In this document: positions 50 through 16,773 of the stretch, one piece after another | Layout of the letters: every line of letters begins with the position of its first letter | Position numbering within the stretch: the stretch's first letter is position 1 | Source of the DNA: a candidate division WOR-3 bacterium | Lineage (GTDB): Bacteria; Hydrothermota; Tepidihabitantia; Tepidihabitantales; DTDR01 | Length of the DNA: 19,543 nt | Direction: 5' to 3' | Assembly: GCA_039801885.1 (NCBI GenBank) | Contig: JBDRVN010000036.1 | Span: 1-19,543 of the forward strand | Notes under the pieces: generated by a model | Told to the model about the DNA's origin: nothing | Database searches by the model: none | What the model saw: the letters and a program-made list of their open reading frames with translations, nothing else | Position numbers and translations under genes: made by a program

Positions 50-1111
50 ATGCCAAAGGTTAAATTCTATGATGGAAGTTATAAAGATAGTGATAATCTA
101 ATTTCCCAAATATTTTCCGATTTTCCTTTTGATTTTAAAAATAAGAAGGTATTTATAAAACCAAATCTTCTCTCCGCCCATCCGCCAGAAAAAGGAGTTA
201 CTACCCATCCAACGATTATTAAATCAATCTGTCAATATTTATTAGATAAAGGAGCGATTATTAAAGTTGGCGATAATCCCAGTTTGTTAAGTAGCGATGC
301 CTTTGAAAGAATTGGTAATATTACTCAAATAAAAGAAGTTTCTTTTGGTTTTTATACGGATATTAGTAAGAATTACAAGAAGATAAAAACAAGGATTGGT
401 GAATTATCTATTTCTGCGGATATTTTGGATTGTGATATTTTAATTTCTGTTCCCAAATTAAAAACCCACATCCTAACAATTTTTACTCTGGCGATTAAGA
501 ATATGTTTGGAATTATTGTTGGTAATCAGAAATCCCAAATCCATTATCAATATCCTTCACCAGTTGAGTTTTCGGAAGCCTTAATAGATATATATGAAAT
601 AAGAAAACCCGATTTAACAATCGTTGACGGAATTTTGGCAATGGAAGGAAATGGACCAAGTCAGGGTAATTTAAGAGAGTTAAATATTTTAGTAGCAGGT
701 GATAATGGTTATCTATTAGAATGGGCGATTATCGGTTATCTATTAAATAAAAATCCTTTATCCATTCCTTATATTAATATCGCCAAAAGAAAGAATTTAT
801 TTAATGAAAATGATTTGGTTATTGAAGGTAATTATAATAAGGTAAAAGACTTTAAAATACCAAGCCAAAGGATTTATTATATCTTAAATAATATTTTAGG
901 TAAAAGTTTAATTAAAATTATCTATCACCCATTTAGGTATCAACGAATTAAAATTGATAAAAATCTATGTAAATTATGCTTGGAGTGTGTAAAAATTTGC
1001 CCAAATAAGGCTTTAAAATTAGAAGATAAAAGAATAGAATATAACAAATCTTTATGTATTTCTTGTTTTTGTTGTTATGAAGTCTGCCCTTATTCAGCAA
1101 TTAAGGTTTAA
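50..1111 (+). CDS. DUF362 domain protein with C-terminal 2x[4Fe-4S] ferredoxin domain
   Basis: Motifs VFIKPNLL, VPKLKTH, AIKNMFG, DGILAMEGNGP; two CxxCxxCxxxCP motifs (CKLCLECVKICP, CISCFCCYEVCP). Confidence 0.9.
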   Translation: MPKVKFYDGSYKDSDNLISQIFSDFPFDFKNKKVFIKPNLLSAHPPEKGVTTHPTIIKSICQYLLDKGAIIKVGDNPSLLSSDAFERIGNITQIKEVSFGFYTDISKNYKKIKTRIGELSISADILDCDILISVPKLKTHILTIFTLAIKNMFGIIVGNQKSQIHYQYPSPVEFSEALIDIYEIRKPDLTIVDGILAMEGNGPSQGNLRELNILVAGDNGYLLEWAIIGYLLNKNPLSIPYINIAKRKNLFNENDLVIEGNYNKVKDFKIPSQRIYYILNNILGKSLIKIIYHPFRYQRIKIDKNLCKLCLECVKICPNKALKLEDKRIEYNKSLCISCFCCYEVCPYSAIKV

Positions 1112-1170
1112 TTTGGTATAAAAAATGTTTAATTATAAAAATGGGATGCCATAAATTTTATTAGAGAATT

Positions 1171-2826
1171 ATGAACTATTTAATTATCTTATTGATTTTT
1201 CAGCAGTTAAGTTATTTTGAATTTGTGGAATATCCGGAAGAACAGATTGCTGGTGATACTTTTTTAGTAAAGATTGTCGCATTTGAAAGTAATGGAGATA
1301 CCTGTTGGTATTTTAATGATATTGCCAATTTAGCAACTACAAAAGATGGTCGTTATCGCTCTGTTTTTATATATCCAAATCAAGTATATTTTCAAAGGGG
1401 AGTTGCGACACAAAAGGTAGTTGTCACACTTGCCGAAACTTTAAGTTTGATTGCCTATGTGCCAAGCAGACCGGAAATAATGGGAAGAACACAGACGATT
1501 GAATTTTATCCAAATTATCCAAAAAAATTAATAATTTTATCACCGGCTGAAACATTGGCTGCCGGTTCTTCTTTTGGTAAAATTTCTTCTTTTCCATTTT
1601 CCATAAAGGCAGGAGAGAATTTTTCTTTTAGGGTATATATTACTGATAATTGGTTTAATCCAACAAATACAACCGGAGAAACTGTTTATTTTAAAAGCAC
1701 TGATAGTTTTGCCTCTTTACCAACAGAAACTCCCTTTTTAGCAAACGAAAGTTTAGTATTTAATTGTAATCTAAAAACTGCTGAGAAAGAAAAGATTTAT
1801 GTTTTATCAAAAACAGGTAGTTTAACAACTGATTCCACCGAGATTATTGTTTTGCCAAATGTTTATAATAAAATTTTATTAATTTTACCTGGTGAAGAGA
1901 TTAAAAAAGGCGATACTACTACCTTAACTTTTTTGAAACCAGGAAAAAGAAAGTTACCAAATCCTCAATATGTAAAAGAACCATTTTTAGTTAAAGTCTA
2001 TATCTGTGATACTTTTTATAACCCAACAAATTGTGAAGGTGAAACAATAAAACTATTTTCTGATTATCCTTTTTTTTATTCACCCAATTTTATTGCCATT
2101 AATGACAGCGGTAGTTTCTTATGTTCTTTTGATTCTACTGGTGAAAACCAGACAATTTGGGCAGAAGGAAAATATAAAGAAACCTATCGTTCAAAATTGA
2201 ATATCTTATCTAAAACTAAATTTTTTGAAATCTTTAAACCCGACACTTTACTTGCCGGAAAAAAAGGTGAAATAGAAGTTATCTGCCTTGATACCAATCA
2301 AAAACCAATTCCTTTCCATAAAGTAGTTTATAAAGTAATAAAAGGGAATGGACAGGTTTCTGATACTTTGGATTATACCGATGAGTTTGGTGTATCAAGA
2401 GTAAAATTTCTCTGCCAATATCCTAATTTTGCTGAAACTGATACCATTTTAATAAAATCTGATGAGAAAGAAGAAAGAATTGGAATTTATATTGAAGCAA
2501 AAGATACCGCGATTTTAAAAGGAAGAATTATTGGTTTTCCAAATCCAACAGGTATTGAAACTGATTCTATAATTTTAATGTATTACCTACCAAAGGCTTG
2601 TGATGTTAATCTCTTTATTTACGACCCCTTTGGTAATATTATTTTAGAGAAAAAAATAAGAAAAGATGAGATCGGTGCTCAATCTGGTGTAAATTATTTT
2701 ATCTGGAATTGTAAAGATAAGAATAACAAAAAGGTTCCTAATGGATTATATAATATAAGAATAACTGGTATTACCCATACCAAAAAAATTTTTGATAATA
2801 CTTATCGGATTTTGGTAGTATGGTAA
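1171..2826 (+). CDS. Exported multi-Ig-domain protein with C-terminal T9SS type A / FlgD-Ig-like domain
   Basis: Short hydrophobic N-terminus; two internal repeats; Big_1-like segment (VICLDTNQKPIP..V.YKV..GNG....YTDEFG); C-terminus FPNP...YYLP...VNLFIYDPFG...FIWNCKD....VPNGLY.IRI. Confidence 0.7.
   Translation: MNYLIILLIFQQLSYFEFVEYPEEQIAGDTFLVKIVAFESNGDTCWYFNDIANLATTKDGRYRSVFIYPNQVYFQRGVATQKVVVTLAETLSLIAYVPSRPEIMGRTQTIEFYPNYPKKLIILSPAETLAAGSSFGKISSFPFSIKAGENFSFRVYITDNWFNPTNTTGETVYFKSTDSFASLPTETPFLANESLVFNCNLKTAEKEKIYVLSKTGSLTTDSTEIIVLPNVYNKILLILPGEEIKKGDTTTLTFLKPGKRKLPNPQYVKEPFLVKVYICDTFYNPTNCEGETIKLFSDYPFFYSPNFIAINDSGSFLCSFDSTGENQTIWAEGKYKETYRSKLNILSKTKFFEIFKPDTLLAGKKGEIEVICLDTNQKPIPFHKVVYKVIKGNGQVSDTLDYTDEFGVSRVKFLCQYPNFAETDTILIKSDEKEERIGIYIEAKDTAILKGRIIGFPNPTGIETDSIILMYYLPKACDVNLFIYDPFGNIILEKKIRKDEIGAQSGVNYFIWNCKDKNNKKVPNGLYNIRITGITHTKKIFDNTYRILVVW
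1510..2064 (+). repeat. Two degenerate ~65-aa intragenic repeats (about 1510-1704 and 1855-2064)
   Basis: PNYPKKLIILSPAET..G...GK...F.FRVYITDNWFNPTNTTGETV versus PNVYNKILLILPGEE..G...GK...FLVKVYICDTFYNPTNCEGETI. Confidence 0.75.
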
Positions 2827-4055
2827 TTATTTTTCTATTTCTTTTCAATTATTTTCCTGGTGTAATTTATGATTATGGCTTATCTCCCCGCTCATTGGCA
2901 TTAGGAAAGGCATTCGTTGGACTTGCTGACGATGGTGAAGCAGGTTATTTTAATCCGGCAGGACTTTCTTTTTTGAATGAAATGGAAGCAAAACTTGCCC
3001 ATTCTCAACTTTACGGTGCCAATTTAGAATATCTAAATTATACCTTACCAACAGCCAAATATGGTACTTATGCCATCACCTTTTTCTCACTTAATTCTTT
3101 TGGAATTGAATCAAGAAACATAAATAATGAGATATCAAAAAAGACATTCTTTACAGAAAATTCTTATATATTATCTTTAAGTTATCCCCTATTCTCTTTT
3201 TTGGGAATTGGTGGAAATTTGAAGATAAATACTAAAAATATTTTTATCTACAGTGATGTGGGAATTGGCTTTGATTTATCTTTCTATTTCTCTTATTTTT
3301 ATCCTTATACATTAGGAATTTCTCTTACTAACCTTGTGCCACCAAATTTTAATCTCTATTCAGAGGAAGAAATCTATAAAAGAATATTTAAAATTGGTCA
3401 GGCTTTTAGAACCTATAAAGAGAGGGTAAAAATTCTTTTAGATATAAATCTTTTAGAAGATATTTTAAAAGATTTTGATTATGATTATATTGAACCAAAA
3501 TTTGGTATTGAATTTGAAATTATGGAAAAAAGATTTATCCAAAGGATTGGTTTAGATAAAAATGAATTAAGTCTTGGTATTGGTTTAAAAAATGTTGGCA
3601 AAAGATTATCTTTTGATGTTGATTATGCTATCTTGCTTCATTATCGTTCTCACTATTTACTTTCACCTACTCATAAAATTGGATTCTCTTTTAAATTTGG
3701 CGGTTTTCGGGTTTGGGCAAGTGCCTTCCCTAAATATTTCTCACCAAAATTGGAAAGTAAAGAGAATCTTTTAACAATCAATATTAAATATTCTGCTAAA
3801 AAAAGAATAAAGAGATGGCAGTTTTTAATTAGAAGTGAATTGGGAGAAATTGTCAAAACTTATCAGGGATTTGATGAGATGCCAACGAAATTTTTCTGGG
3901 ATGGATTGGATGACATTGGTCGGCCAGTTGCCGATGGAAAATATTATTATGAAATTACTCTGATTGATATTGATGAAAAAGTATCTTTACATAATACCGG
4001 ATTTTTAACAATTATAAAAACTACCGGTCCAAAAGGCGAGGTAAAAATAAAATGA
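2820..4055 (+). CDS. PorV/PorQ-like (UPF0164, FadL-type) outer-membrane beta-barrel fused to C-terminal FlgD-Ig-like domain
   Basis: Family signature SPRSLALGKAFVGLADDGEAGYFNPAGL; alternating beta-strand segments ending HKIGFSFKF; then W.FLIR..GEIVKTY.G...P.KFFWDGLD..G..VADGKYYY. Confidence 0.8.
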   Translation: MVIIFLFLFNYFPGVIYDYGLSPRSLALGKAFVGLADDGEAGYFNPAGLSFLNEMEAKLAHSQLYGANLEYLNYTLPTAKYGTYAITFFSLNSFGIESRNINNEISKKTFFTENSYILSLSYPLFSFLGIGGNLKINTKNIFIYSDVGIGFDLSFYFSYFYPYTLGISLTNLVPPNFNLYSEEEIYKRIFKIGQAFRTYKERVKILLDINLLEDILKDFDYDYIEPKFGIEFEIMEKRFIQRIGLDKNELSLGIGLKNVGKRLSFDVDYAILLHYRSHYLLSPTHKIGFSFKFGGFRVWASAFPKYFSPKLESKENLLTINIKYSAKKRIKRWQFLIRSELGEIVKTYQGFDEMPTKFFWDGLDDIGRPVADGKYYYEITLIDIDEKVSLHNTGFLTIIKTTGPKGEVKIK

Positions 4056-6457
4056 GTCTCTTAATCTTCTTTCAACTCTTTTTCTTAACGGAGGCAGAAG
4101 ATTTTATTAACAAATATAATGAAATTATGAAATATCTAAAAGAAGAAAATTATCAATTAATAATCAAAGAAGGTAAAAAATTCAAAAAGAAGATTCCAGA
4201 AAGTTTAAAAAAAGAAGGTTTTGAATGGGAGATTGACTTTGCCATTGCTCTTTCTTATTTAGGGTTAAAAGATTATAAAAAAGCAGAAAAAATATTTTCT
4301 AAAATTATTAAAAATAGCAAGAATTATTTAAAACCAGAAGCCACTTATGCCCTTTTATTGGGTTCAGTTATGAAAGGCGATTTTAAAAAGGGTGAAGAGG
4401 AATTAAAAAAATTAATGGAATATGAAAATTATCAAAAAGATGAAAGAATTTTATTAGTAAAGGCGATTATTAATTATCTAAAAAATGAAGATAAAGAAGC
4501 CTTTAATATTTTAAAGGATTTATCATTAATAGAAGCAAAAATTTATCAGGCAAAAATATTGGGAAAAGAAGATAAAATAATTTCCGCAATCAATATCTTG
4601 AAATCAATTATTGAAAATAATCCTAATTTATTATTAACAAGTTATTGTCATTTCCTTTGGGGTGAAATTCTATTTTTTGCTAATGATTATCTTGGTGCCC
4701 AAGCAAAATTCAGTTATTTTTTAGAAAATTATCCCGATTCTCCTTTAAAAGATTTTGCCCATTATTTTTTAGGTGTCTCCTCTTTTTATCTTAATAATTA
4801 TTTAAAAACTATTGAAAACCTAAAAGTTTTAACCAAAAATAATCTCTCTTTTCTGGCGGCTAATAGTTGTTATTATTTAGGTATTGCCTACTTCCTTTTG
4901 AAAGATTATGATAATGCGTTATATTATTTACGTAAAGCCCTTTATAACTTTCCCAAAGAAAAAGCTTCTCTTTATGCCCAATTAGAAATACCTTTTTTAT
5001 ATTTAGCAAAAAAGGATACAGTAAATGCTATCCTTACATCTTTACAGATTTCAAAACAGAGTAATATCCGAATCTTTAATGAATTACAAAATTATTTTCT
5101 TGCCCTTTTGTATTATCAATTTAAAGATTATGAAAATGCCTTTAAATCCTTAGAAGATATTTTGCTGAAAAGTAAAGATAAAATATTAAAAGAAGCAAGT
5201 GCTTTAATTTTATTACAATTATCCCTATTAACTAAGAATGAAGAAAGGGGAATTAGTATTTGTGAGAGATTTTTAAAAGAAGAGAGTATTATTAATAATC
5301 AAGAGATTTATTATCTTTTAGCAGAAAATTTATATTCCTTACAAAGATTTGAAGAGGCAGAATATTATTATGAGAGAATTAAAAATTCGAAAGGAAAATT
5401 GGGAAAAGGATATTGTGCTTTCCATTTAGGAAGATATGAACAAGCAAAAGAGATTTTTAATAGTATTTACCAAACTGATTTAAGTGATACCATTTTTACC
5501 CTTAATGCCCTTTTAGGATTAGGATATGTTTCTTTCAACCAAGGAGAATATGAAAAAGCAATTGATTATTTTGATTTTGTTATCCAAAATTTTAATCTCC
5601 CTTCTTATAAAGATTTTATTGCTAAAGCATATTTTTATGCAGGTATTGCTTGCGAAAAATTAAAATATTATGGTCAGGCATTAGAATATTACAAAAAATT
5701 GTTAGAAAATTATCCTGATTACGAAAAAGGCGATGAAACCTCTTTTCGCATCGGTGATTTGTATTTTAAAGCAAAGAAATATGATGAAGCGATTGGCTCT
5801 TTTCAATATCTAATTAGCCGCTATCCCAACTCTTCTTTTCTTCCCTTTGCTCAGGCAGCAATTGGTCAGGCTTATCTTATCCAAAAAAATTATAAAAACG
5901 CCATTATCTCCTTTGAAAAATTTCTTAATCTTTTCCCTAAGGATATTCAAGCAAACGGTGTTAAAAAATCATTAGAACTTGCTTATTATTATGCCTCTTG
6001 GGAAGATACCAATTATCAAAAAGAATTTTTAAAAAAATTTCCTTCTTCCGAACTTTCTTCTCAATTGCTTATTGAGAAGGCAAAAGAACTGGTTAATAAA
6101 AAAGAGTATAATAAAGCATTAGAAATTTTGCAATCAATCGCTGCTGAGATGATTGATACCGAAATTGGTGGTGATGCTCAATTACTAATCGCTGAAATTT
6201 ATAGCAACGAAAAAGATTGGGAGAATACAAAAAATAGTTATGAAAGATTTCTAAAATATTTTCCTAAACATTCCCAAAGAGCCGGCGTCTATTTTAACTT
6301 GGCAATTACTTATTATAACTTAAAAGATTATGAAAAGGCAAAAGAAAATTTTCAGATTGTCTTGGATTCTTTTCCCAATTCGGAATTTAAAGAGATGGCA
6401 GAAAAAAATCGGGAATTAACATTAAAAAAAATTGGTGAGAAAAAGGAGGAAAAATGA
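4052..6457 (+). CDS. Large periplasmic tetratricopeptide-repeat protein (BamD/CpoB-type TPR units)
   Basis: Many TPR helices ending in YP.S-type motifs (FLENYPDSPL, LISRYPNSSF, VLDSFPNSEF); hydrophobic N-terminus; ATGA overlaps at both ends. Confidence 0.88.
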   Translation: MSLLIFFQLFFLTEAEDFINKYNEIMKYLKEENYQLIIKEGKKFKKKIPESLKKEGFEWEIDFAIALSYLGLKDYKKAEKIFSKIIKNSKNYLKPEATYALLLGSVMKGDFKKGEEELKKLMEYENYQKDERILLVKAIINYLKNEDKEAFNILKDLSLIEAKIYQAKILGKEDKIISAINILKSIIENNPNLLLTSYCHFLWGEILFFANDYLGAQAKFSYFLENYPDSPLKDFAHYFLGVSSFYLNNYLKTIENLKVLTKNNLSFLAANSCYYLGIAYFLLKDYDNALYYLRKALYNFPKEKASLYAQLEIPFLYLAKKDTVNAILTSLQISKQSNIRIFNELQNYFLALLYYQFKDYENAFKSLEDILLKSKDKILKEASALILLQLSLLTKNEERGISICERFLKEESIINNQEIYYLLAENLYSLQRFEEAEYYYERIKNSKGKLGKGYCAFHLGRYEQAKEIFNSIYQTDLSDTIFTLNALLGLGYVSFNQGEYEKAIDYFDFVIQNFNLPSYKDFIAKAYFYAGIACEKLKYYGQALEYYKKLLENYPDYEKGDETSFRIGDLYFKAKKYDEAIGSFQYLISRYPNSSFLPFAQAAIGQAYLIQKNYKNAIISFEKFLNLFPKDIQANGVKKSLELAYYYASWEDTNYQKEFLKKFPSSELSSQLLIEKAKELVNKKEYNKALEILQSIAAEMIDTEIGGDAQLLIAEIYSNEKDWENTKNSYERFLKYFPKHSQRAGVYFNLAITYYNLKDYEKAKENFQIVLDSFPNSEFKEMAEKNRELTLKKIGEKKEEK

Positions 6458-7128
6458 TTTTAGGTCAAAGTTTGTACCAAATATTTAAAAGTAGTTTTGT
6501 AATGATTTTATTGCTCTTTCTCTCAATCATTGCCCTTGCCTTAATTATTGAGAGACTAATCTATTTCTATCGCAACCATTTTAAAAGCAAAGAGACCTTT
6601 GAGAAATTTGCTAATTATTTAAGAAAAGGTAATATAAAAGAAGCAGAAGAATATGCTTTAAGTCTGAAAAATCCGGTAGGTAGGATTTTCCTTATTGGTT
6701 TAGAAAATCTTCATCTCAAAAATGAAGAATTAAAAGAACTTTTTATTGGTCAGATAATAGAAGAAAAGGTTAAATATGAAAATTATCTTGGTGGGATCGG
6801 TACGATTGCCAATGGTGCTACTTTATTGGGTCTTTTAGGAACAGTAATTGGTCTTATCAAGGCTTTTCATAATATCGCTGTCACTGGTTCCGGTGGACCG
6901 GTCGTTGTATCAAAAGGAATTGCTGAAGCATTATTGACCACCGCCTTTGGTTTATTAATCGGAATTCCCGCTCTTTTCTTTTATAATTATTTCTCTAAGA
7001 AAGCAAATGATTTAAGTGAAGAATTAGAAAGTCTTTCCCAAAAGTTTTTGGTTTTATTAGAAACTATCCGCAGTAAAAAAGAGGAGACAAAAGAAGAAAA
7101 AAAGGCGGAAATATTTTGGAAATTTTAG
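6454..7128 (+). CDS. exbB: MotA/TolQ/ExbB proton channel family protein
   Basis: Three transmembrane segments; LLGLLGTVIGLIKAF and GIAEALLTTAFGLLIGIPA signatures. Confidence 0.92.
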   Translation: MILGQSLYQIFKSSFVMILLLFLSIIALALIIERLIYFYRNHFKSKETFEKFANYLRKGNIKEAEEYALSLKNPVGRIFLIGLENLHLKNEELKELFIGQIIEEKVKYENYLGGIGTIANGATLLGLLGTVIGLIKAFHNIAVTGSGGPVVVSKGIAEALLTTAFGLLIGIPALFFYNYFSKKANDLSEELESLSQKFLVLLETIRSKKEETKEEKKAEIFWKF

Positions 7129-7542
7129 ATGTTAAGAAAAAGATTGTTAAAAAGAAAGAGTAATTTAACAGAATTAAATATAACTTCCTTAGTTGATATC
7201 GCTTTAACATTAGTTATTGGCTTTATTGTTGCTCTTCCCTATTTCTTTGAATCGGGTATTTTTGTCTCCCAAGCAAAATTAACCAAAAGTGAAGGAAGTT
7301 CATTAGAAAAGGAGTTAAAAATAAATATCTATTTAACAAAAAATGAGGAAATAATTTTAAATGAAAAGAAAGTAGATTTAACTGTTCTAAAAAATCTTTT
7401 GCCGCAATTGTTATTAAGAAGTTTAGAAAAAAGGGTGTTGATTGGCGCTGATACCGAAGTAAAATATGAAAAAATAATAAAAATTCTTGATATTTGTAAA
7501 GAAAGTGGTGCAAAAGAATTGACTTTAATAAGAAAAAAATGA
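7129..7542 (+). CDS. exbD: ExbD/TolR family protein (conserved TM Asp present)
   Basis: ELNITSLVDIALTLV transmembrane motif (Asp codon 7195-7197); VLIGADTEVKYE.II.ILD..KESG. Confidence 0.9.
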   Translation: MLRKRLLKRKSNLTELNITSLVDIALTLVIGFIVALPYFFESGIFVSQAKLTKSEGSSLEKELKINIYLTKNEEIILNEKKVDLTVLKNLLPQLLLRSLEKRVLIGADTEVKYEKIIKILDICKESGAKELTLIRKK

Positions 7543-7931
7543 GAATATCAAATATTAATGTGTTACCGGTGGCTTGTGTTGGTTTGTTAATGGTGATAAT
7601 GATGATTATGGTTGCACCGATGGTTATCAGTTATTCCAAAACACCGGTTGATGTGCCAAAAGCAAATACAGCAGAAAGAAAAGTAGAAAATGAGATTGTT
7701 ATCTCTTTCACTAAGGATAAAAAATTGTATTTAAATGATACTCCACTATCTTTACATATTTTAAAAGAAGAAATTGAAGATGAATTAGAGGAAGACCCTT
7801 ATCGTTTAGTTGTTATAAGAGCAGATAAAGAAGTAAGTTATGGCGAAGTAATTTCAATTATTGCTATTGCCAAAGAAGCCGGAGCAAAAAGAATTGCTTG
7901 TAGCACAAAAAAGAAGGAGAGAAATGAATAA
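7539..7931 (+). CDS. exbD: Second ExbD/TolR family protein (TM Asp replaced by Cys)
   Basis: NINVLPVACVGLLMVIMM..APM; VDVPKA; VVIRADKEVSYGEVI.II..AKEAGAKRI. Confidence 0.88.
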   Translation: MRISNINVLPVACVGLLMVIMMIMVAPMVISYSKTPVDVPKANTAERKVENEIVISFTKDKKLYLNDTPLSLHILKEEIEDELEEDPYRLVVIRADKEVSYGEVISIIAIAKEAGAKRIACSTKKKERNE

Positions 7932-8790
7932 AGTTAAAACAATTGATATAGCTATTCTTTTCTCAGTAGTTATCCATTTTTTCTTATTCTTTCTTTTTGG
8001 TCAATTGAAAGAAAAAGAAATTACTTACGAAGATTTAAGGGAAATAACTTTTGTTGATCAATCTTATCGACCAGAGGTAGCAAAAATAATAAAACCAACA
8101 AAAAGTGCTCAAAGTAATTTTGAAAAAAATAAAGAGGTTAAAAAAATTGAAGAAGAGGAAACAGAAATTTCGCCAGTTGATTTAACAAAAAGAATGGAAA
8201 TAACTCAGGGAAAGATAAATTTAAATTATTTTTCTCTTGGAAAAGAAGAAGGGATAGACGTAATCAAAATTAGTCCCAATAAAGGAACAACAAAAACAAT
8301 TGAAGAGATTTTGAAAGAAGAACCGATAAAATTGGTTAGTCGAGAAAAAAGTAGAGGAGTTGCTTTTGGTGTTTATCAAGAGGAAAAAGAACCGATAAAT
8401 TTAGAAACAAAGAATCTGAAGAAAGATAAAAAAATAGAATGGCAAGAAAAAAGTAGCGAAGAGTTAAAAACACCAACCCAAGCAAAGAAACAGACAGAGA
8501 TTGCGATTGCTGGTCCAATATCAGAAAGAAAGATTTTAAAGAAGTTTTTACCCAAATATCCAAGTTGGGCGATAGAAAAGGGAATTAGTGGTTATGTAAT
8601 TTTGAAAATCTGGGTAACGCCCGATGGAAAAGTAGAAGATAATATTGAAATTGTTGAAACCAGTGGCTATCCTCAATTGGATAAAATTGTTATGGAAGCA
8701 ATAAGAGAGTGGCTTTTTGCTCCGTTAGACGAAAATACCAAAAAAGAGATTCAATGGGGAATTATTAAATTCAGATTTGAATTATCATGA
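7924..8790 (+). CDS. tonB: TonB family energy transducer
   Basis: ATG at 7924 after AAGGAG; N-terminal TM with S-x3-H (SVVIH); K/E-rich spacer; TonB_C domain (PKYP..AIEKGISG.V.L...V.PDG.V....TSGYPQLD...EAIREW.F.P). Confidence 0.88.
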   Translation: MNKVKTIDIAILFSVVIHFFLFFLFGQLKEKEITYEDLREITFVDQSYRPEVAKIIKPTKSAQSNFEKNKEVKKIEEEETEISPVDLTKRMEITQGKINLNYFSLGKEEGIDVIKISPNKGTTKTIEEILKEEPIKLVSREKSRGVAFGVYQEEKEPINLETKNLKKDKKIEWQEKSSEELKTPTQAKKQTEIAIAGPISERKILKKFLPKYPSWAIEKGISGYVILKIWVTPDGKVEDNIEIVETSGYPQLDKIVMEAIREWLFAPLDENTKKEIQWGIIKFRFELS

Positions 8791-9656
8791 ATCTCCTTAT
8801 TATATTTTTCTTAATTTTTCAAATTGATAGTCTAAAATTAAAAAAGGAATCTTACGAAATTGGTGAAGAGGTAATTAAAGGAGAAAAGAAGATAACCATT
8901 AATGAAATGAAAATTTTAAGAATACCTCAAATTGATCCCTTTAATCTTTTGATTGAAAAATTCTCTCTGAAAGATATTGAACTTAATAAAGAAATAATAA
9001 AATTTACCGATTCAATCTTTCTCTCTTATTCCCTTTTAAGTTTTCCTTATCTTCGGTTACCGTTAAAAGAAAAGACTTTAAAAGAGAATTTAATAATCTT
9101 TTTGCCGGAATTTGAAAAGGGGGTTAAAAATTGGGAACTGGTAATTTATTCCCAAAAGGGTGAAATTATTAAGAAAATAAATAATAAAGGAGAGGTTCCC
9201 AAAGCAATTTATTGGGATTTGAAAAAAGAAGATGGCAATTATTTGAATGTTGATGAAATTTATTACGCAATTTTTACTGCCTATGATTTTTTAGGTAATG
9301 AGACAAAAATTTTAACTCCTCCCTTCTCTTTTGATGGGTTAATTTATCAAGAAAAAGATAAAAAAGTTATTATAATAAATCCGGAAAGAATTTTTAAATT
9401 GGAAACAGCAGAAATTGAAGAAAAGGGTAAAGAGATAATTGAAGAGATTTGTAATATTATTAAGCAGGATTTACCAAAGGAAATAATAATAAATTTCTTT
9501 ACCAAGAAAGAGAATTATTTATTAGAGCAAGCGAAAATTTTCGAAGAAGAGATAAAAAAGAAAGTAGCTTTAAATAAAAATCTTAAGATCTATCCTTCTT
9601 TTCAAAAAGAACTTTTTAATAGAATAAACAAGATTGAAATTATTCTTTTTAAATAA
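8787..9656 (+). CDS. Exported protein with FlgD-Ig-like domain and degenerate OmpA/MotB-like C-terminal domain
   Basis: Hydrophobic N-terminus; WELVIY..KGEIIK.....VPKAIYWD; C-terminus IF..ETAEI...GKEII..IC....IIINF...NKIEIIL follows the OmpA_C pattern. Confidence 0.55.
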   Translation: MNLLIIFFLIFQIDSLKLKKESYEIGEEVIKGEKKITINEMKILRIPQIDPFNLLIEKFSLKDIELNKEIIKFTDSIFLSYSLLSFPYLRLPLKEKTLKENLIIFLPEFEKGVKNWELVIYSQKGEIIKKINNKGEVPKAIYWDLKKEDGNYLNVDEIYYAIFTAYDFLGNETKILTPPFSFDGLIYQEKDKKVIIINPERIFKLETAEIEEKGKEIIEEICNIIKQDLPKEIIINFFTKKENYLLEQAKIFEEEIKKKVALNKNLKIYPSFQKELFNRINKIEIILFK

Positions 9657-9659
9657 TTT

Positions 9660-10697
9660 TTATTTAGGTGTTAAATGGTAATAGGTAAATCCCTTTTCTT
9701 TATGCCAAACTTCTGGGTCTTTTAAGTATTTTTCTATCTCTTTCTCCTCTTCATCAGTAATAAAAGTTATCTCTTTAGGAATATTTTTAGAAAAGAGGGC
9801 GGATAAACTGGTTAATGAGAAAAGTTTGACACCAATTTTCTTTAATTCTTCTTCACCACCTTGTTCCCTATCTAATAAAACAAAACAACTATCACAAATT
9901 CCACCGGCTTCTCGGATAAAATTTATAATTCTTATTTTTGTCCATCCTTTCACAATTGTATCATCAACGAGTAATACTCTTTTTTTATAAAGTTCGGGTA
10001 ATTTTATCCCTTCTAAAATTGGTGCCTCCGGATATCTCTTCTCTCTGCGGGCAAAAAACATTGGTTTGGAAAGATACTGGGCAATCAAAGATGCCAAAGC
10101 GATACTTCCAGCTTCAATACCACAGATAAAATCAAATTGGAGTGTTGATAAGATAAGAGCTGAGGCACTAATTATAAAATTACCGATTGCCGGATAATTT
10201 GGTAATCCCTTTAAATCAATATATATTGGACTGCGATTTTTTCTTTCATCTACTTTAAAATAAGGTCTTAAATCACCCATACTTACTTTTATCGCACCAA
10301 TCTGCCATAAGAGGGAAGCAATAATTTCCGAAAGATTACCTTTTATTTTGTTGAGCACTTCGTAAAGATTGGGTAAAATAATCCTTTGTTCTCTTAATAA
10401 CCGAAATAGCCTTTCTGCCTCTTCTTGCTTCTTGCTAACAAAAGCAATCCTTGTTTCAGTAATATCAAAGACAAAATGGAGTTCGTAATTTTTATTTAAA
10501 TTATAAGAAACACAATTGGCATCTTTCTTAGTTTCTTTAAGAAACAATTCTTTGCCAATAATCTTCTTACAAATATTTTCACTAAAATCCTTTGCCAAAC
10601 TTTCTATCTCTTTCAATTCCAAAAGTCGGGGAGTAGAAAAGTTTAGTAAATTTTCTTTTAATCTTAAATCTTTAATTGCCAATTTACTTATTTCCAT
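9660..10697 (-). CDS. Orotate phosphoribosyltransferase-like type I PRTase with N-terminal extension
   Basis: SPIYIDL, ICGIEAG, VLLVDD..KG.T, LLDREQGG, DP..W motifs; ATG at 10697 has GGAG upstream and overlaps the coaE end. Confidence 0.75.
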   Translation of the reverse strand: MEISKLAIKDLRLKENLLNFSTPRLLELKEIESLAKDFSENICKKIIGKELFLKETKKDANCVSYNLNKNYELHFVFDITETRIAFVSKKQEEAERLFRLLREQRIILPNLYEVLNKIKGNLSEIIASLLWQIGAIKVSMGDLRPYFKVDERKNRSPIYIDLKGLPNYPAIGNFIISASALILSTLQFDFICGIEAGSIALASLIAQYLSKPMFFARREKRYPEAPILEGIKLPELYKKRVLLVDDTIVKGWTKIRIINFIREAGGICDSCFVLLDREQGGEEELKKIGVKLFSLTSLSALFSKNIPKEITFITDEEEKEIEKYLKDPEVWHKEKGFTYYHLTPK

Positions 10698-13617: not shown

Positions 13618-14043
13618 TTATCTCAAAATCAATATCTTTTTTATACCTTTCTCGGCTTTTTTGAAATAAATACCCTTTTTCAGCCTCTTTTTATTAACAA
13701 GTTTACCGGTTATGTTATAGATTTTCTCAATTTTTGGGGTGACTAATTTTTCTATCTTTGTTGTTTTATCTTCCCTAATGCCGGGTGTTTGGACATATTT
13801 AATTGTTGCATAATCGCGAAATCTACCAACACTGTAACCGGTAACATAAACATTACCATTATTGTCAATAGCAATCGCATGGGCTTCGTCATCATTACTT
13901 ATCGGACCGTTATACCTTCTTACCCAGGCAGTGTCTACTTGGGAGAACAAGAGAGCGGGGATAAGAAAAGGAGAAACAAAAAAGAGAAAGAAGAAATTTA
14001 ATTTTTTAACCTTTCTATTAGCCTCCCTTTTTATTTTTTCCAT
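13618..14043 (-). CDS. Small exported protein with a single SBBP beta-propeller repeat and minimal T9SS-like C-terminal domain; possibly an internally deleted remnant
   Basis: Signal peptide ending [33 protein letters not shown]...DYATIKY; C-terminus [10 protein letters not shown]...LKKGIYF......KKILILR. Confidence 0.65.
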
Positions 14044-14142: not shown

Positions 14143-14799
14143 ATGATTGAATTTGATAATGTCTCAAAGACTTATCAGAATAAATGGACGGCTTTGAGTA
14201 GTGTTTCTTTTAAGGTTGAACGCGGAGAATTCATTTTTATCACCGGTCCAACCGGTGCCGGTAAAACAACAATCCTGAAACTTATCTATGCCGAAGAATT
14301 GCCTACTATTGGTAAAGTAATTGTCAATAATAAAAATGTCGCATCTCTTAAAAAGAAGGAAATTCCCTTCTATCGTCGTAATATTGGTATTATCTTTCAA
14401 GATTTTAAATTGCTATCTGATCGAACAGTTTATGAAAATTTAGAATTTGTTTTGAAGGCGATTGATATGAAAGGAGATGAAATAAGAGAAAAGATTGTGC
14501 GCACCTTAACTCGGTTAGGCTTGGTCCATAAAAAGGATTGCTATCCTTATCAATTATCCGGTGGTGAACAACAGAAGGTAGCGATTGCCCGAGCCTTGGT
14601 AAAGGATCCGGAAATAATTTTGGCTGATGAACCAACCGGTAATATTGATGAGGAAGCCAGTAAAGAGGTTATTAACATTTTTAAAGAGATAAATTTGATG
14701 GGAACAACGGTGATTATGGCAACCCATCACTCGGAACTTCCCCAAATATTAAAGAAAAGGAGATTACACATTGTCTCTGGGAAAATTGCTTATGGTTAA
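14143..14799 (+). CDS. ftsE: Cell division ATP-binding protein FtsE
   Basis: [46 protein letters not shown]; upstream of ftsX and envC. Confidence 0.95.
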
Positions 14800-15637
14800 T
14801 TTTATCTTTAAAGAAAGTTTGCGAGGAATTAGGAAAAAACCACTCCCCTTTTTCTTATCAACCTTTGCTTTTGGTCTCTGTCTTTTAATTATCTTAATCT
14901 TTTTCCTTTTAACTTATAATCTCTTTCTTTCCTTAAAGATTGCTTATGATAAAATTGAAATCTATGCCTTTTTAGATGAGAAGGTTTCTTTTCCAGAGAT
15001 AAAAGATAAAATTAGTCTGATTGATGGTGTAGAAGAAGTAAGATATATCTCTAAGGATGAGGCTTTAAAAATTTTGAAAGAGGAATTAAAAGAAGAAGCC
15101 AGTTTTTTAGAAAATCTTGAGCGCAATCCCTTGCCACCATCATTAAGAATAAGAATTTCCCAAAAGGCTAAGCAGGTAGCGGAGATAAAAAGGATTGAAG
15201 ACAAGTTAAGACTAATTCCCGGAATAAAGGATGTTTGGGCTGGTGAAGAGTTGATTAGTAAATTGGTGAAGGTATTAAATAATATTATTTATATCGATAT
15301 CGGAATTTTGATTGTCGTTTCAATCTCCGTCATTTTTATCATTTTCCAGAATATTGAACAAAGTCTCTTCAACCGGCAAAGGGAGATTGAGATTATGCAA
15401 TTGGTTGGTGCCAAGAATTATTTTATTAAGGCACCTTTTTATTTAGAAGGAATTTTGGAAGGGGTTTTGGGTGGACTTTTTTCTTTTGTTCTTTTATTTT
15501 TTATTTATCGGATAATGAGTTTAAGTGTTATGGCGTTAAGTTTTCCAACAATTCTTTTATTGATTTTTGCTATTCTTATCGGTGCCTTTCTTGGTGGTAT
15601 TGGCTCAAGTCTTGCTTTAAACCGAATATTAAAATGA
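14792..15637 (+). CDS. ftsX: Cell division permease FtsX
   Basis: YISKDEAL, NPLPPS, R.REIEIMQLVGA...FI..PF.LEG; four transmembrane segments; ATG at 14792 overlaps the ftsE end. Confidence 0.94.
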   Translation: MVNFIFKESLRGIRKKPLPFFLSTFAFGLCLLIILIFFLLTYNLFLSLKIAYDKIEIYAFLDEKVSFPEIKDKISLIDGVEEVRYISKDEALKILKEELKEEASFLENLERNPLPPSLRIRISQKAKQVAEIKRIEDKLRLIPGIKDVWAGEELISKLVKVLNNIIYIDIGILIVVSISVIFIIFQNIEQSLFNRQREIEIMQLVGAKNYFIKAPFYLEGILEGVLGGLFSFVLLFFIYRIMSLSVMALSFPTILLLIFAILIGAFLGGIGSSLALNRILK

Positions 15638-16773
15638 AAAAGATTTCTATATTTCTTTTCCTTTTTTTAATTTTTTTAATTGGTCTTACTCAAGAAGGAG
15701 TTACTTCCGAAGAGATTGATAAGAACAAAAAAGAACTCTCGGAAATCAGAGAAAAATTGAAGAAGGTAGAAGAAAGGTTGGAAGATCTAAAAAAGGAAGA
15801 GAAGGGAATTTTAAAAATGATTGAAGCCATTGAAGAGAAGACCGATTTAACAAAAAGATTAATTAAACAATTAAATCAAACAATAAAAAATTATGAGAAT
15901 CTGATTAACAATTTAGAAAGGGATATAAAAAATACCGAAGAAAAAATTAGTGAGAAGGAGAAGGATATTGATAAACTGGTTATCCTTTTATATAAAATTA
16001 AAACCCGTTTACCTTTGGAGCTCTATTTCTCTAATCGCTCTTTGCCTGAGGTCTATTCTAAATTAGTAAATCTTAATTACATTGCTCGCGAAAATCAAAA
16101 CCAGATTTACGAACTATCCAATTTAAAAAGGAAATTGGAAAAGGATAAAAGGGATTTATTTAATGCTTACGAAGAGGTGAAAAACTTAAAAGAGCAGAAG
16201 GAAGCAGAAGAAAAAAGGTTGAAAGAAAGAAGAGAAGAACAGAGAAAAATTTTGGGGAAAATTCAGAGCGAAAAAAGTCAGCAAGAAAAATTACAACAAG
16301 AATTAAAAGAGGCGGAAAAGAGATTGGCAGATTTAATTGCCGAACTGGAAAGAAAAAGAGTAAAAAGAAAATTGCCTCCCGGTGCCCATTATTTAGAAAA
16401 AGAGAAGAATAATCTTCCCTGGCCATTAAAAGGTAAAATCATTAGTTATTTTGGCGGTCTTTCCCATCCGAAATATCAAACCAAGATAAAGAATCAAGGG
16501 ATAGATATTGAAACAGAATTTGGCACCAAGGTGATCGCAATCGCACCCGGTCGGGTAGTTTATGCCGACCGATTTCGGGGTTATGGCAATATGGTTATTA
16601 TTGACCATCAGGAAGGTTATTATACTGTCTATTCTAATCTTTCCGAGATTGCTGTGCGTGCCAATCAGGAAGTAAAACAAAATGAGGTTATTGGTCTCTC
16701 AGCCGAATATCTCCATTTTGAATTAAGAAAAGAAGGACAACCGGTTAATCCCTTAGAATGGTTAAGCCGCTAA
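15634..16773 (+). CDS. envC: EnvC-like murein hydrolase activator (coiled coil plus M23 domain)
   Basis: Signal peptide, long coiled coil, LPWPLKG, NQGIDI, GYGNMVIIDH, LHFELR; M23 Zn ligands partly degenerate (NQGID, YSNL) as in EnvC. Confidence 0.88.
   Translation: MKKISIFLFLFLIFLIGLTQEGVTSEEIDKNKKELSEIREKLKKVEERLEDLKKEEKGILKMIEAIEEKTDLTKRLIKQLNQTIKNYENLINNLERDIKNTEEKISEKEKDIDKLVILLYKIKTRLPLELYFSNRSLPEVYSKLVNLNYIARENQNQIYELSNLKRKLEKDKRDLFNAYEEVKNLKEQKEAEEKRLKERREEQRKILGKIQSEKSQQEKLQQELKEAEKRLADLIAELERKRVKRKLPPGAHYLEKEKNNLPWPLKGKIISYFGGLSHPKYQTKIKNQGIDIETEFGTKVIAIAPGRVVYADRFRGYGNMVIIDHQEGYYTVYSNLSEIAVRANQEVKQNEVIGLSAEYLHFELRKEGQPVNPLEWLSR

Follow-up and report, generated by a model that had tools for sequence, protein, structure and literature searches.

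The 19,543-nucleotide stretch analyzed here, referred to as the window, is one whole contig (C36) of a 1.56-Mb assembly of a candidate division WOR-3 bacterium (70 contigs, 91% complete). Positions 1171 to 9656 are occupied by eight open reading frames on the forward strand, g1 to g8, which encode an immunoglobulin (Ig)-repeat protein with a type IX secretion system (T9SS)-type C-terminal domain (CTD), an outer membrane (OM) barrel with the fold of PorV, a large tetratricopeptide repeat (TPR) protein, an ExbB-type channel subunit, two ExbD paralogs, a TonB-like transducer, and an exported protein with Ig and OmpA-like domains. We suggest, on the strength of the parts themselves, of the folds they adopt, of how tightly they are linked, and of their retention in several phyla, that the eight genes encode a single accessory trans-envelope machine of the Ton/Tol/Agl kind with a dedicated barrel-cargo pair; we regard the case for this reading as about evenly balanced, and any specific output assigned to the machine merits less confidence than that.

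The eight-gene block and its distribution

The gene junctions (Table 1), read from the sequence, measure -7, -4, -4, 0, -4, -8, and -4 nucleotides, with ATGA overlaps at 4052 (g2/g3), 6454 (g3/g4), 7539 (g5/g6), and 8787 (g7/g8), a TAG-ATG abutment of g4 and g5 at 7128/7129, and short overlaps at 2820 (g1/g2) and 7924 (g6/g7); the coordinates and junctions match those of the eight codirectional, overlapping or abutting genes listed in the initial annotation made from the sequence. The longest reading frame of g7 opens at a TTG at 7861, but the ATG at 7924 matches the N termini of 21 orthologs in the alignment and is, on that comparison, the likely start. A DUF362/ferredoxin gene lies upstream of g1 and a convergent phosphoribosyltransferase-like gene ends at 9660, so that the block is bounded on both sides. 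A scan of positions 900 to 10000 returned 62 promoter-like sites (41 expected) and 1 terminator-like site (4.6 expected), counts that are uninformative in such AT-rich DNA.

Full-length g2 orthologs (42 to 96% identity) are present in four of the five families of the order to which the bacterium belongs; family f5 gave only paralog-level g2 matches (10/10 genomes). All eight genes stood in the same order at every one of the 12 loci fetched from four families of this order, and in other WOR-3 classes g2, g3, ExbB, ExbD, TonB, and g8 followed one another in order at 11 of 14 loci, two of the other three being truncated by contig ends and the third (L042) carrying the motor, TonB, and g8 only. 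With the single g8 protein as the query, relatives were found in 115 of the 201 WOR-3 genomes sampled; a g8 profile, which served as the marker of the cluster, raised this to 128/201 (98 of the 153 good-quality genomes) and was not found in families f5 (0/8), f12 (0/3), f14 (0/4), and f17 (0/14) or in genus g29 (0/6). A homolog search with the same profile yielded 28 proteins, and all of those with a named taxon were assigned to WOR-3 or "Candidatus Hydrothermales."

The block is also found beyond WOR-3. A single g2 protein used as the query found no relative in genome contigs; a seven-sequence g2 alignment, with one genome taken per species, found 389 relatives among 563 candidate stretches, from which the best 80 g2-like loci were kept and 21 of these examined. 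The order of large Ig/CTD gene, barrel with Ig domain, TPR gene (about 1,000 residues), ExbB, ExbD, ExbD, TonB_C, and g8-like gene was present at three loci labeled Elusimicrobiota (L074, L078, and L082), at one locus each from Goldiibacteriota (L077) and Stahlbacteria (L073), and at L080, and it held at a further Elusimicrobiota-labeled locus (L076) minus the tblastn match to g7. Pfam confirmed every part in L074 and L077, where the first gene encodes 1,810 and 1,807 residues, respectively. Loci L075 and L087 were truncated by contig ends, L089 showed g2 and g3 only, and L123 showed part of g2 only. Seven loci, from Zixibacteria, Ignavibacteriales, Endomicrobia, TA06, Wallbacteria, and one Elusimicrobia record, gave matches that stopped short of the Ig domain of g2 and contained no motor within the fetched flanks; at the barrel-only loci L101, L111, and L128 of other phyla, a g1-like C terminus lay just upstream. 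The block is also present in two metagenome-assembled genome records labeled "Thermotogota" (L093 and L094). As their ExbB falls within WOR-3 family f32 (support, 100/99), they were rejected as a further phylum and counted as WOR-3-like; mislabeling of the records or transfer of the genes is suggested. The Atlas contains g1-like clusters from Krumholzibacteriota, as well as g8-like clusters from Elusimicrobiota and Spirochaetota. The synteny that the initial annotation had looked to as support is therefore conserved, at the level of the order, in other classes of the phylum, and in the Elusimicrobiota and Goldiibacteriota records.

Because gene order is kept across phyla, the arrangement of g1 to g8 is far more than chance. 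The simplest contrary view, that there is no joint machine and that an ordinary Ton system serving two TonB-dependent receptors adjoins a cargo-barrel pair that is unrelated to it, together with a TPR gene, can point to the presence of two such receptors elsewhere in the genome, to the derivation of all of the parts from common families, and to two loci (L042 and L084) that carry the block in part. However, order and overlapping junctions are retained in WOR-3 at 12/12 and 11/14 loci and also in two additional named phyla, a separate ExbB-ExbD-ExbD-TonB set could serve the receptors, and homologous Ig domains are found in g2 and g8, which lie at opposite ends of the block, so we consider fortuitous adjacency to be extremely improbable.

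The motor and its periplasmic partners

The motor subunits named in the initial annotation were recovered as such by Pfam: g4 matched MotA_ExbB (PF01618; 98.5 bits), g5 and g6 matched ExbD (PF02472; 72.6 and 73.3 bits), and g7 matched TonB_C (61.8 bits) as well as tonB_Cterm (52.8 bits, above the cut-off of 27.1). More-specific models were less decisive: g4 scored 104.3 bits on the tolQ model (cut-off, 221) and 69.8 bits on the exbB model, both under the cut-off, the ExbD_1/2 equivalog models fell under their cut-offs, and the tolR model gave 54.4 and 69.6 bits on the two ExbD paralogs against a cut-off of 127.3. The N-terminal transmembrane helix of g7 contains an S-x3-H motif, with His18 nearly invariant in 22 orthologs, and in the portions consulted of a 2025 survey of periplasmic force transducers (PMC12204202) a Ser/His motif of the transducer helix is what defines docking on the motor. 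The 177-residue linker of g7 contains 8 Pro, 29 Lys, and 30 Glu residues, being rich in Lys and Glu rather than Pro, and has a conserved middle block; a weak match (15.8 bits; cut-off, 40) was obtained with the AgmX/PglI C-terminal domain model.

The two ExbD paralogs differ at one transmembrane position. The transmembrane Asp of ExbD, which we take to be the proton-binding residue, is retained in g5 (SLVDIAL) and lacking in g6 (LPVACVGL). The position of the Asp in g5 of the window was compared in N-terminal alignments of 27 g5 and 25 g6 rows from the fetched WOR-3 loci: Asp was present in 19/27 g5 orthologs, the other eight having Asn or Ser, and in 8/25 g6 orthologs, with none in the other 17. 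Where both ExbD rows were available, Asp occurred in exactly one paralog at 23 of 25 loci and in both at the other two. The holder differs between lineages, being g5 at 17 of the single-Asp loci, the window included, and g6 at 6; in other classes (loci L030 to L055 compared), the second paralog holds the Asp and the first has Asn or Ser. Judged from the occurrence of Asp in exactly one paralog at 23/25 loci, the ExbDs of the stator appear to form an obligate heterodimer that has one proton-binding Asp, loss having taken place on different paralogs in different lineages.

A tree of 50 ExbB-like proteins, comprising the cluster copies, all tblastn-retrieved paralogs from five WOR-3 genomes, and three paralogs from the same genome as the window (midpoint root only; the G083 ExbB matches L159 and L160 left out, as tblastn had missed them), placed the TolQ-like WOR-3 paralogs in one clade (100/99) apart from the cluster ExbBs, including g4, and the Ton-like paralogs in another (100/100), whose long stem attaches, weakly supported (91/79), to the cluster copies. 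On this tree, the cluster motor is nearer to ExbB than to TolQ. Some WOR-3 classes have two adjacent ExbB-like genes in the cluster (L053, L054, L055, and G083:C1:597497-598964), one of which encodes about 360 residues in L053 to L055, and these pairs group in the tree as old duplicates.

Other motors are encoded in the same genome. At the end of contig C62 lie genes for a TolQ-like protein (151 bits, tolQ model), a TolR-like protein, and a TolA-like protein (TonB_2; tolA_full, 35 bits); TolB is on C21 (355 bits, above the cut-off), and Pal (108.6 bits, Pal_lipo) and CpoB (125 bits, above the cut-off) are on C50. An ExbB-ExbD-ExbD-TonB set on C3 (G000:C3:42494-48144; L014:495-6145) is followed by two proteins of 580 and 610 residues with Por_Secre_tail domains. 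Only two TonB-dependent receptors (PF00593) were found in the genome, on C37 and C17, with none on the window contig. Since the Tol-Pal parts, a second ExbB-ExbD-ExbD-TonB set, and two receptors are all located elsewhere, the Tol-Pal and ordinary Ton systems are accounted for without the window motor, and g4 to g7 constitute a third, dedicated motor. The C3 operon may, for its part, likewise connect a Ton-type motor with CTD cargo.

Two further proteins of the block would act alongside the transducer. g3 matches TPR models of many families throughout its length (e.g., TPR_6, 149.7 bits), has an N-terminal hydrophobic signal or anchor, and lacks a lipobox Cys; its orthologs, of 801 to 1,108 residues, occupy the same position in the locus, and we presume it to be a periplasmic scaffold. 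It scored 165.9 bits on tol_pal_ybgF (cut-off, 90.1), a match made of six repeated stretches, and 59.7 bits on PorW/SprE (cut-off, 250); identification as CpoB or PorW was rejected in view of its 801 residues, the repeated nature of the TPR stretches, and the PorW score. The model of g8, built from a 25-sequence alignment, has a predicted local distance difference test (pLDDT) score of 79.8, rising above 90 from about residue 100, and comprises an N-terminal motif (about residues 20 to 45), a helix, a FlgD-Ig-like domain (about 98 to 197), and an OmpA/MotB-C-like domain (about 198 to 289). Foldseek matched the former domain to FlgD hook-cap Ig domains and the latter to the OmpA-like domains of Dot/Icm (7mud_AL), FopA1 (6u83), PA0833 (6jfw), and MotB (3s0w), which bears out the Ig-plus-OmpA-like call of the initial annotation. 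Residues 20 to 45 are conserved in sequence, with Ile38 and Lys42 nearly invariant, yet are modeled as disordered, and there is no Cys after the signal sequence and hence no lipobox. By hhalign, the Ig domain of g8 is a homolog of that of g2 (98.5%; E, 3.4e-15; 83 columns). The g8 profile also matched 3,212 protein representatives at an E value of ≤0.001, and most of the best 150 of these are proteins of 1,000 to 4,000 residues with 8 to 28 Ig-domain repeats; in several such large tandem-Ig proteins, the last matched stretch continues into the OmpA-like part of the profile. In the Atlas, proteins of the FlgD_ig/CHU_C/OmpA type are found mainly in Spirochaetota.

These features raise the question of whether the block is a second Tol-Pal-like envelope integrity system, in which g7 would correspond to TolA, g8 to Pal, and g3 to CpoB, with g2 as an anchor, and which would tether or remodel the OM and wall. 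The higher score of g4 on the tolQ than on the exbB model, the passing of the YbgF/CpoB model by g3, the OmpA/MotB-C-like fold of g8, and the paucity of Pro in the g7 linker are all compatible with this view; the N-terminal strand of TolB binds TolA, and the conserved disordered motif of g8 could mimic it. However, a full Tol-Pal complement is present elsewhere in the genome, the cluster has no TolB, g8 has neither a lipobox Cys nor a Pfam OmpA match, the YbgF match of g3 lies in repeated TPR stretches of a protein that is not of CpoB size, the cluster ExbB stands apart from the TolQ-like clade, and the conserved Ig-repeat/CTD gene g1 is left unexplained. A second Tol-Pal system is, in our judgment, unlikely.

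The barrel-cargo pair and type IX secretion

The barrel of g2 extends from about residue 20 to residue 303 and is followed by a FlgD_ig/CHU_C-like C-terminal domain (about residues 306 to 400). An AlphaFold model from a 30-sequence alignment (pLDDT, 85.9) shows about 14 barrel strands and then a beta-sandwich, and the best Foldseek matches were to PorV in the Flavobacterium johnsoniae translocon complexes (8gl6_F [E, 1.5e-9; TM, 0.57/0.64] and 6h3i_F), followed by the substrate channels FadL, TodX, and TbuX, which have an N-terminal plug. The PorV/FadL-like barrel of the initial annotation is thus upheld, with PorV as the best fold, but the FlgD-Ig-like domain had been missed. As the number of barrel strands in the model is even, the Ig domain is predicted to face the periplasm. 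Orthologs of g2 bear the UniRef name "PorV/PorQ family protein," from sources that name candidate division WOR-3, so that the phylum guessed in the initial annotation was right, and among the seven PorV_fam matches in the genome g2 is the longest, at 418 residues of open frame against 281 to 373.

Directly upstream, g1 has a signal-like N terminus and a C-terminal domain of residues 456 to 551, approximately, with an FPNP motif at its start. Among 15 g1 orthologs, Pfam found FlgD_ig in 15, Big_1 in 7, CHU_C in 5, and Invasin_D3 in 4, the binding-type domains MG2 and Big_1 being represented, and the Atlas model aligned with Ig arrays of the invasin/Big_1 type in a structure search. The T9SS type A sorting domain model (TIGR04183, Por_Secre_tail) matched 10/15 orthologs at an E value of ≤0.01, and the CTD-bearing ends of the PorU and PorZ models each matched 12/15. 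A more remote relationship (91.6%; E, 8.1e-7) connects the C-terminal domain of g1 with the Ig domains of g2 and g8.

Similar pairs occur elsewhere in the genome. On C8 (G000:C8:5195-9148), about 110 nucleotides separate a PorU-like gene (261 bits; CTD at 8021-8242) from the PorV_fam gene (149 bits) that comes after it; on C17 (G000:C17:13798-15064), a 981-residue CTD protein precedes the best PorV_fam gene (179 bits), with a TonB-dependent receptor about 3 kb upstream. The assembly contains only a 26-bit SprA fragment (Table 1), but SprA was found in all three congeners searched, so its absence is probably an assembly gap rather than a loss. Across the phylum, SprA was detected in 197/201 genomes (178 above the cut-off) and TIGR04183 in 201/201, with scoring that saturates at 27 per genome. 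GldM was found in 0/201 WOR-3 genomes, GldL in 0/101 above the cut-off (six weak matches lay in frames of 690 to 1,102 residues), and GldN in 0/101; no control genome (n = 14) was positive for GldM or for GldN either, and the negatives for all three are suggestive rather than proof. WOR-3 bacteria therefore appear to run SprA, PorU, PorV, and CTD cargo without a recognizable PorLM.

Against this background, the inference of the initial annotation that the cluster is the energy module of a T9SS variant, with ExbB-ExbD-TonB in place of PorL/PorM driving CTD export through SprA, has obvious appeal: the Gld proteins were not found in a phylum in which SprA is almost universal, PorU-like and PorV genes and abundant CTD proteins are present while the energy source of T9SS is unaccounted for, and g2 has the PorV fold. 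However, the marker is missing from 73/201 genomes, including all of those sampled from families f5 (0/8) and f17 (0/14), and because these genomes still have SprA and abundant CTD proteins the cluster is unlikely to be the general T9SS motor. In addition, divergent PorLM-like genes may exist, given that the Gld models had no positive control in the 14 control genomes, and the ExbB-ExbD-ExbD-TonB set on C3, adjoining two CTD proteins, is an equally good candidate. The distribution of the marker (128/201) relative to those of SprA and the CTD thus fails to support the motor idea, which we consider very unlikely. Other elements of that annotation fared better: CTD proteins with no PorL/M match are indeed what the genome and phylum show, the CTD proteins are many (54 TIGR04183 matches above the cut-off), and the operon is free of 22-strand receptors, TolB/Pal, and PorL/M, with the receptors, TolB, and Pal on other contigs. 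It had also allowed that receptors and a canonical T9SS elsewhere might explain the parts separately; two receptors, a second Ton set, and TolQ-TolR-TolA-like, TolB, Pal, and CpoB proteins were found, and a complete canonical T9SS was not.

The fold of g2 is open to a further interpretation, that of TonB-dependent uptake, in which the 14-strand FadL/PorV-like barrel would import a hydrophobic or polymeric substrate captured by g1 and be energized by g7. In its favor, the plugged channels FadL, TodX, and TbuX are the next-best folds after PorV, the Ton-like paralogs are closer to the motor in the tree than are the TolQ-like ones, and g1 orthologs carry binding-type domains. On the other hand, channels of the FadL type are known to need no energy input, the conserved block contains no metabolic or inner-membrane transporter gene, and a TPR protein of 800 to 1,100 residues and g8 have no role in known uptake systems. 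We think that uptake is quite unlikely to be the function.

Table 1. Genes of the block in the window and T9SS-related matches in the same genome
Feature	Location	Strand	Description
g1	1171..2826	+	551-residue exported protein, tandem Ig-like (Big_1/invasin-like) domains, T9SS-type C-terminal domain
g2	2820..4055	+	411-residue outer membrane barrel, PorV/FadL fold, C-terminal FlgD-Ig-like domain
g3	4052..6457	+	801-residue TPR protein
g4	6454..7128	+	224-residue ExbB/TolQ-type proton-channel subunit
g5	7129..7542	+	137-residue ExbD/TolR paralog 1
g6	7539..7931	+	130-residue ExbD/TolR paralog 2
g7	7924..8790	+	288-residue TonB-like force transducer (from ATG 7924)
g8	8787..9656	+	289-residue exported protein, FlgD-Ig-like and OmpA/MotB-C-like domains
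PorV_fam	own genome		7 matches, 3 above cut-off
PorU-like	own genome		2 genes, 261 and 256 bits (cut-off, 420); C8 copy directly followed by PorV gene
TIGR04183	own genome		60 matches at E ≤ 0.01, 54 above cut-off, none on window contig
GldL, GldM	own genome		no match
SprA	own genome		26-bit fragment only; no SprA_N; no tblastn match to the 1,888-residue SprA of relative G010

Elsewhere in the window, positions 14143 to 16773 encode an FtsE-like ABC ATPase, FtsX, and an M23 peptidase with a coiled-coil N terminus (EnvC-like), which form a standard cluster for the control of cell division hydrolases. A 141-residue reading frame on the reverse strand (13618 to 14043) contains a single SBBP beta-propeller repeat (34 bits), adjoins acpP-fabF, and may be a fragment.

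A proposed mechanism and its place among motor systems

The contacts, topologies, and output of a single accessory machine can be sketched as we infer them from its parts. An ExbB pentamer would hold an ExbD1-ExbD2 heterodimer in which only one paralog has the proton-binding Asp, and the proton motive force acting through this assembly would move g7, which would dock on the motor through its S-x3-H helix and span the periplasm. The target of g7 would be a dedicated OM module, the g2 barrel together with g1, rather than a 22-strand receptor. Strand addition is the probable way in which its TonB_C domain would engage its partner, either the disordered motif at the N terminus of g8 or the Ig domains carried by g8 and by g2, the homologous Ig domains being the likely handles for the transducer; g3 would scaffold the contacts among g7, g8, and g2, and the OmpA-like domain of g8, possibly wall binding, may brace the assembly against the wall. 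The barrel would hold the C-terminal domain of g1 at the surface, as PorV, PorQ, and PorP/SprF hold their cargo, and the pull would alter the barrel or a plug such that g1 is retained, exposed, moved, or released there. Read in this way and by analogy, the system would work like Agl-Glt or SprB-SprF/GldLM, with a motor acting on a barrel-adhesin unit, while being a member of neither. The more-specific proposal of a "TonB-dependent PorV-type" nanomachine distributed over several phyla, in which a 5:2 motor with a single-Asp ExbD pulls a PorV-fold barrel by FlgD-Ig handles and so moves, exposes, or releases a T9SS-type adhesin, is tentative; we regard it as possible, with the balance of probability lying against it.

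A number of observations weigh against the proposal of a joint machine or against the roles given to its parts. We infer cotranscription of g1 to g8 from the gene overlaps only. The module can be split, because L042 has no g2 or g3 nearby and a Firestonebacteria locus (L084) has a 115-residue CTD-only gene, the barrel, the TPR gene, and ExbB and then continues with an isoleucyl-tRNA synthetase gene. The cluster ExbBs are not resolved as a single clade, and the Ton-like paralogs nest among them. In the window copy of g1, the C-terminal domain matched Pfam FlgD_ig at residues 469 to 533 with 23.7 bits, under the cut-off of 27, and the TIGR04183 search of the genome found no match on the window contig and so none in this copy; the Ig-repeat-plus-CTD description given in the initial annotation therefore holds for the CTD in the 10 matched orthologs and falls below threshold in the window itself. 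Because the Ig domain of g2, to which the C-terminal domain of g1 is related, is putatively periplasmic, g1 could itself be periplasmic and not surface exposed. The PorV_fam score of g2, 58.9 bits over residues 21 to 293, is under the cut-off of 90. Finally, g8 has no Pfam match, its OmpA-like domain included, and in the window copy Gln replaces the Arg that is conserved at this position in most orthologs, so that wall binding by g8 is uncertain.

Judged mainly on titles and abstracts, the literature contains no description of the g1-to-g8 gene set that we could find. In composition, the closest known system is Agl-Glt, a likeness that rests on the parts list and not on orthology. According to the parts consulted of the study of Luciano et al. 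(2011; PMC3169522), the core complex in Myxococcus and its relatives is encoded by aglR, aglQ, aglS, gltG, gltD, gltE, and gltC, comprising one TolQ-like and two TolR-like proteins, the TonB-like GltG, and the TPR proteins GltD, GltE, and GltC; its function outside gliders is described there as unknown, and in Myxococcus it is extended by OM barrels and a surface adhesin. The parallel drawn in the initial annotation is real at this level: both have one TolQ/ExbB-like protein, two TolR/ExbD-like proteins, a TonB-like transducer, a large TPR protein, and one extra gene in one cluster. As far as the consulted parts allow comparison, the block differs in that an FHA domain is lacking from g7, that it has a single TPR gene where Agl-Glt has three, that the barrel has the PorV fold with a FlgD-Ig domain and the surface protein has a T9SS-type CTD, and that the carriers are WOR-3, Elusimicrobiota, and Goldiibacteriota.

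Cargo-barrel pairs in T9SS include PorU-PorV, PorZ-PorQ, and SprB-SprF/PorP, with PorV as a shuttle (PMC5562754 and PMC9143113, as consulted in part; structures 6h3i and 8gl6). In a similar fashion, a CTD-bearing g1 lies directly upstream of a PorV-family g2 whose model is closest to PorV, and other such pairs are present in the genome; in contrast to the pairs described in those sources, g2 has an extra periplasmic FlgD-Ig domain and a PorV_fam score below the cut-off, and the operon that contains the pair also encodes a Ton-type motor together with TPR and OmpA-fold proteins, PorL, PorM, and PorN not having been found. The block resembles Ton systems in its MotA_ExbB, ExbD, and TonB_C domains, in the transmembrane His of the transducer, and in the ExbB-ExbD-ExbD-TonB order seen also on C3, but the cluster has no plug-bearing 22-strand receptor, the partner barrel has about 14 strands, the g7 linker is rich in Lys and Glu instead of Pro, and one ExbD paralog has no transmembrane Asp. 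With Tol-Pal it shares a motor, a periplasm-spanning transducer, and OmpA-fold and TPR proteins, g3 passing the YbgF model and g4 scoring best on the TolQ model; it differs in having no TolB in the cluster, in that g8 is not a lipoprotein, in the presence of a Tol-Pal set elsewhere, and in the separation of its ExbB from the TolQ-like clade.

A further parallel comes from the Planctomycetota-Verrucomicrobiota-Chlamydiota (PVC) group, in which clusters made up of a TPR gene, one tolQ-like gene, two unlike tolR-like genes, and a vWA-domain transducer gene, of unknown function, have been proposed as undiscovered proton motive force-driven envelope systems, the same survey holding, in the parts consulted, that further systems with a 5:2 motor await discovery (Mol Biol Evol 2025; PMC12204202). 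The block shares with these clusters the TPR gene, one TolQ-like and two unlike TolR-like proteins, and a membrane-anchored transducer with a conserved His; the head of the transducer is a vWA domain there and TonB_C here, and a PorV-fold barrel, a CTD, and a FlgD-Ig/OmpA protein are not mentioned in the consulted parts of that survey. We regard the OM partner as what is new in the block, the motor system being of the Ton/Tol/Agl type.

Motors of the ExbB/TolQ/MotA family power nutrient import, OM stabilization, flagella, gliding, and type IX secretion, and each newly recognized output of these motors has opened a field. The cluster brings together a Ton-type motor and a type IX-like barrel and cargo, in phyla without a detected canonical type IX motor, and it recurs in at least three named phyla made up mostly of uncultured bacteria. 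The alternating loss of Asp between the ExbD paralogs constitutes a natural experiment on the working of the 5:2 stator. If the coupling of motor to barrel and cargo is real, the block would be a concrete candidate for the energizing of events at the outer surface in these lineages, would link the Ton/Tol and type IX worlds, and would offer a compact eight-gene system for structural and heterologous study. Should the TonB-dependent PorV-type reading also be true, the block would represent a third independent instance of motor-driven handling of a surface adhesin, beside GldLM-SprB of Flavobacterium and Agl-Glt of Myxococcus. In phyla without PorLM, apparently WOR-3 among them, where the Gld searches leave the energy source of type IX secretion unaccounted for, it may be the missing energy source for part of that process.

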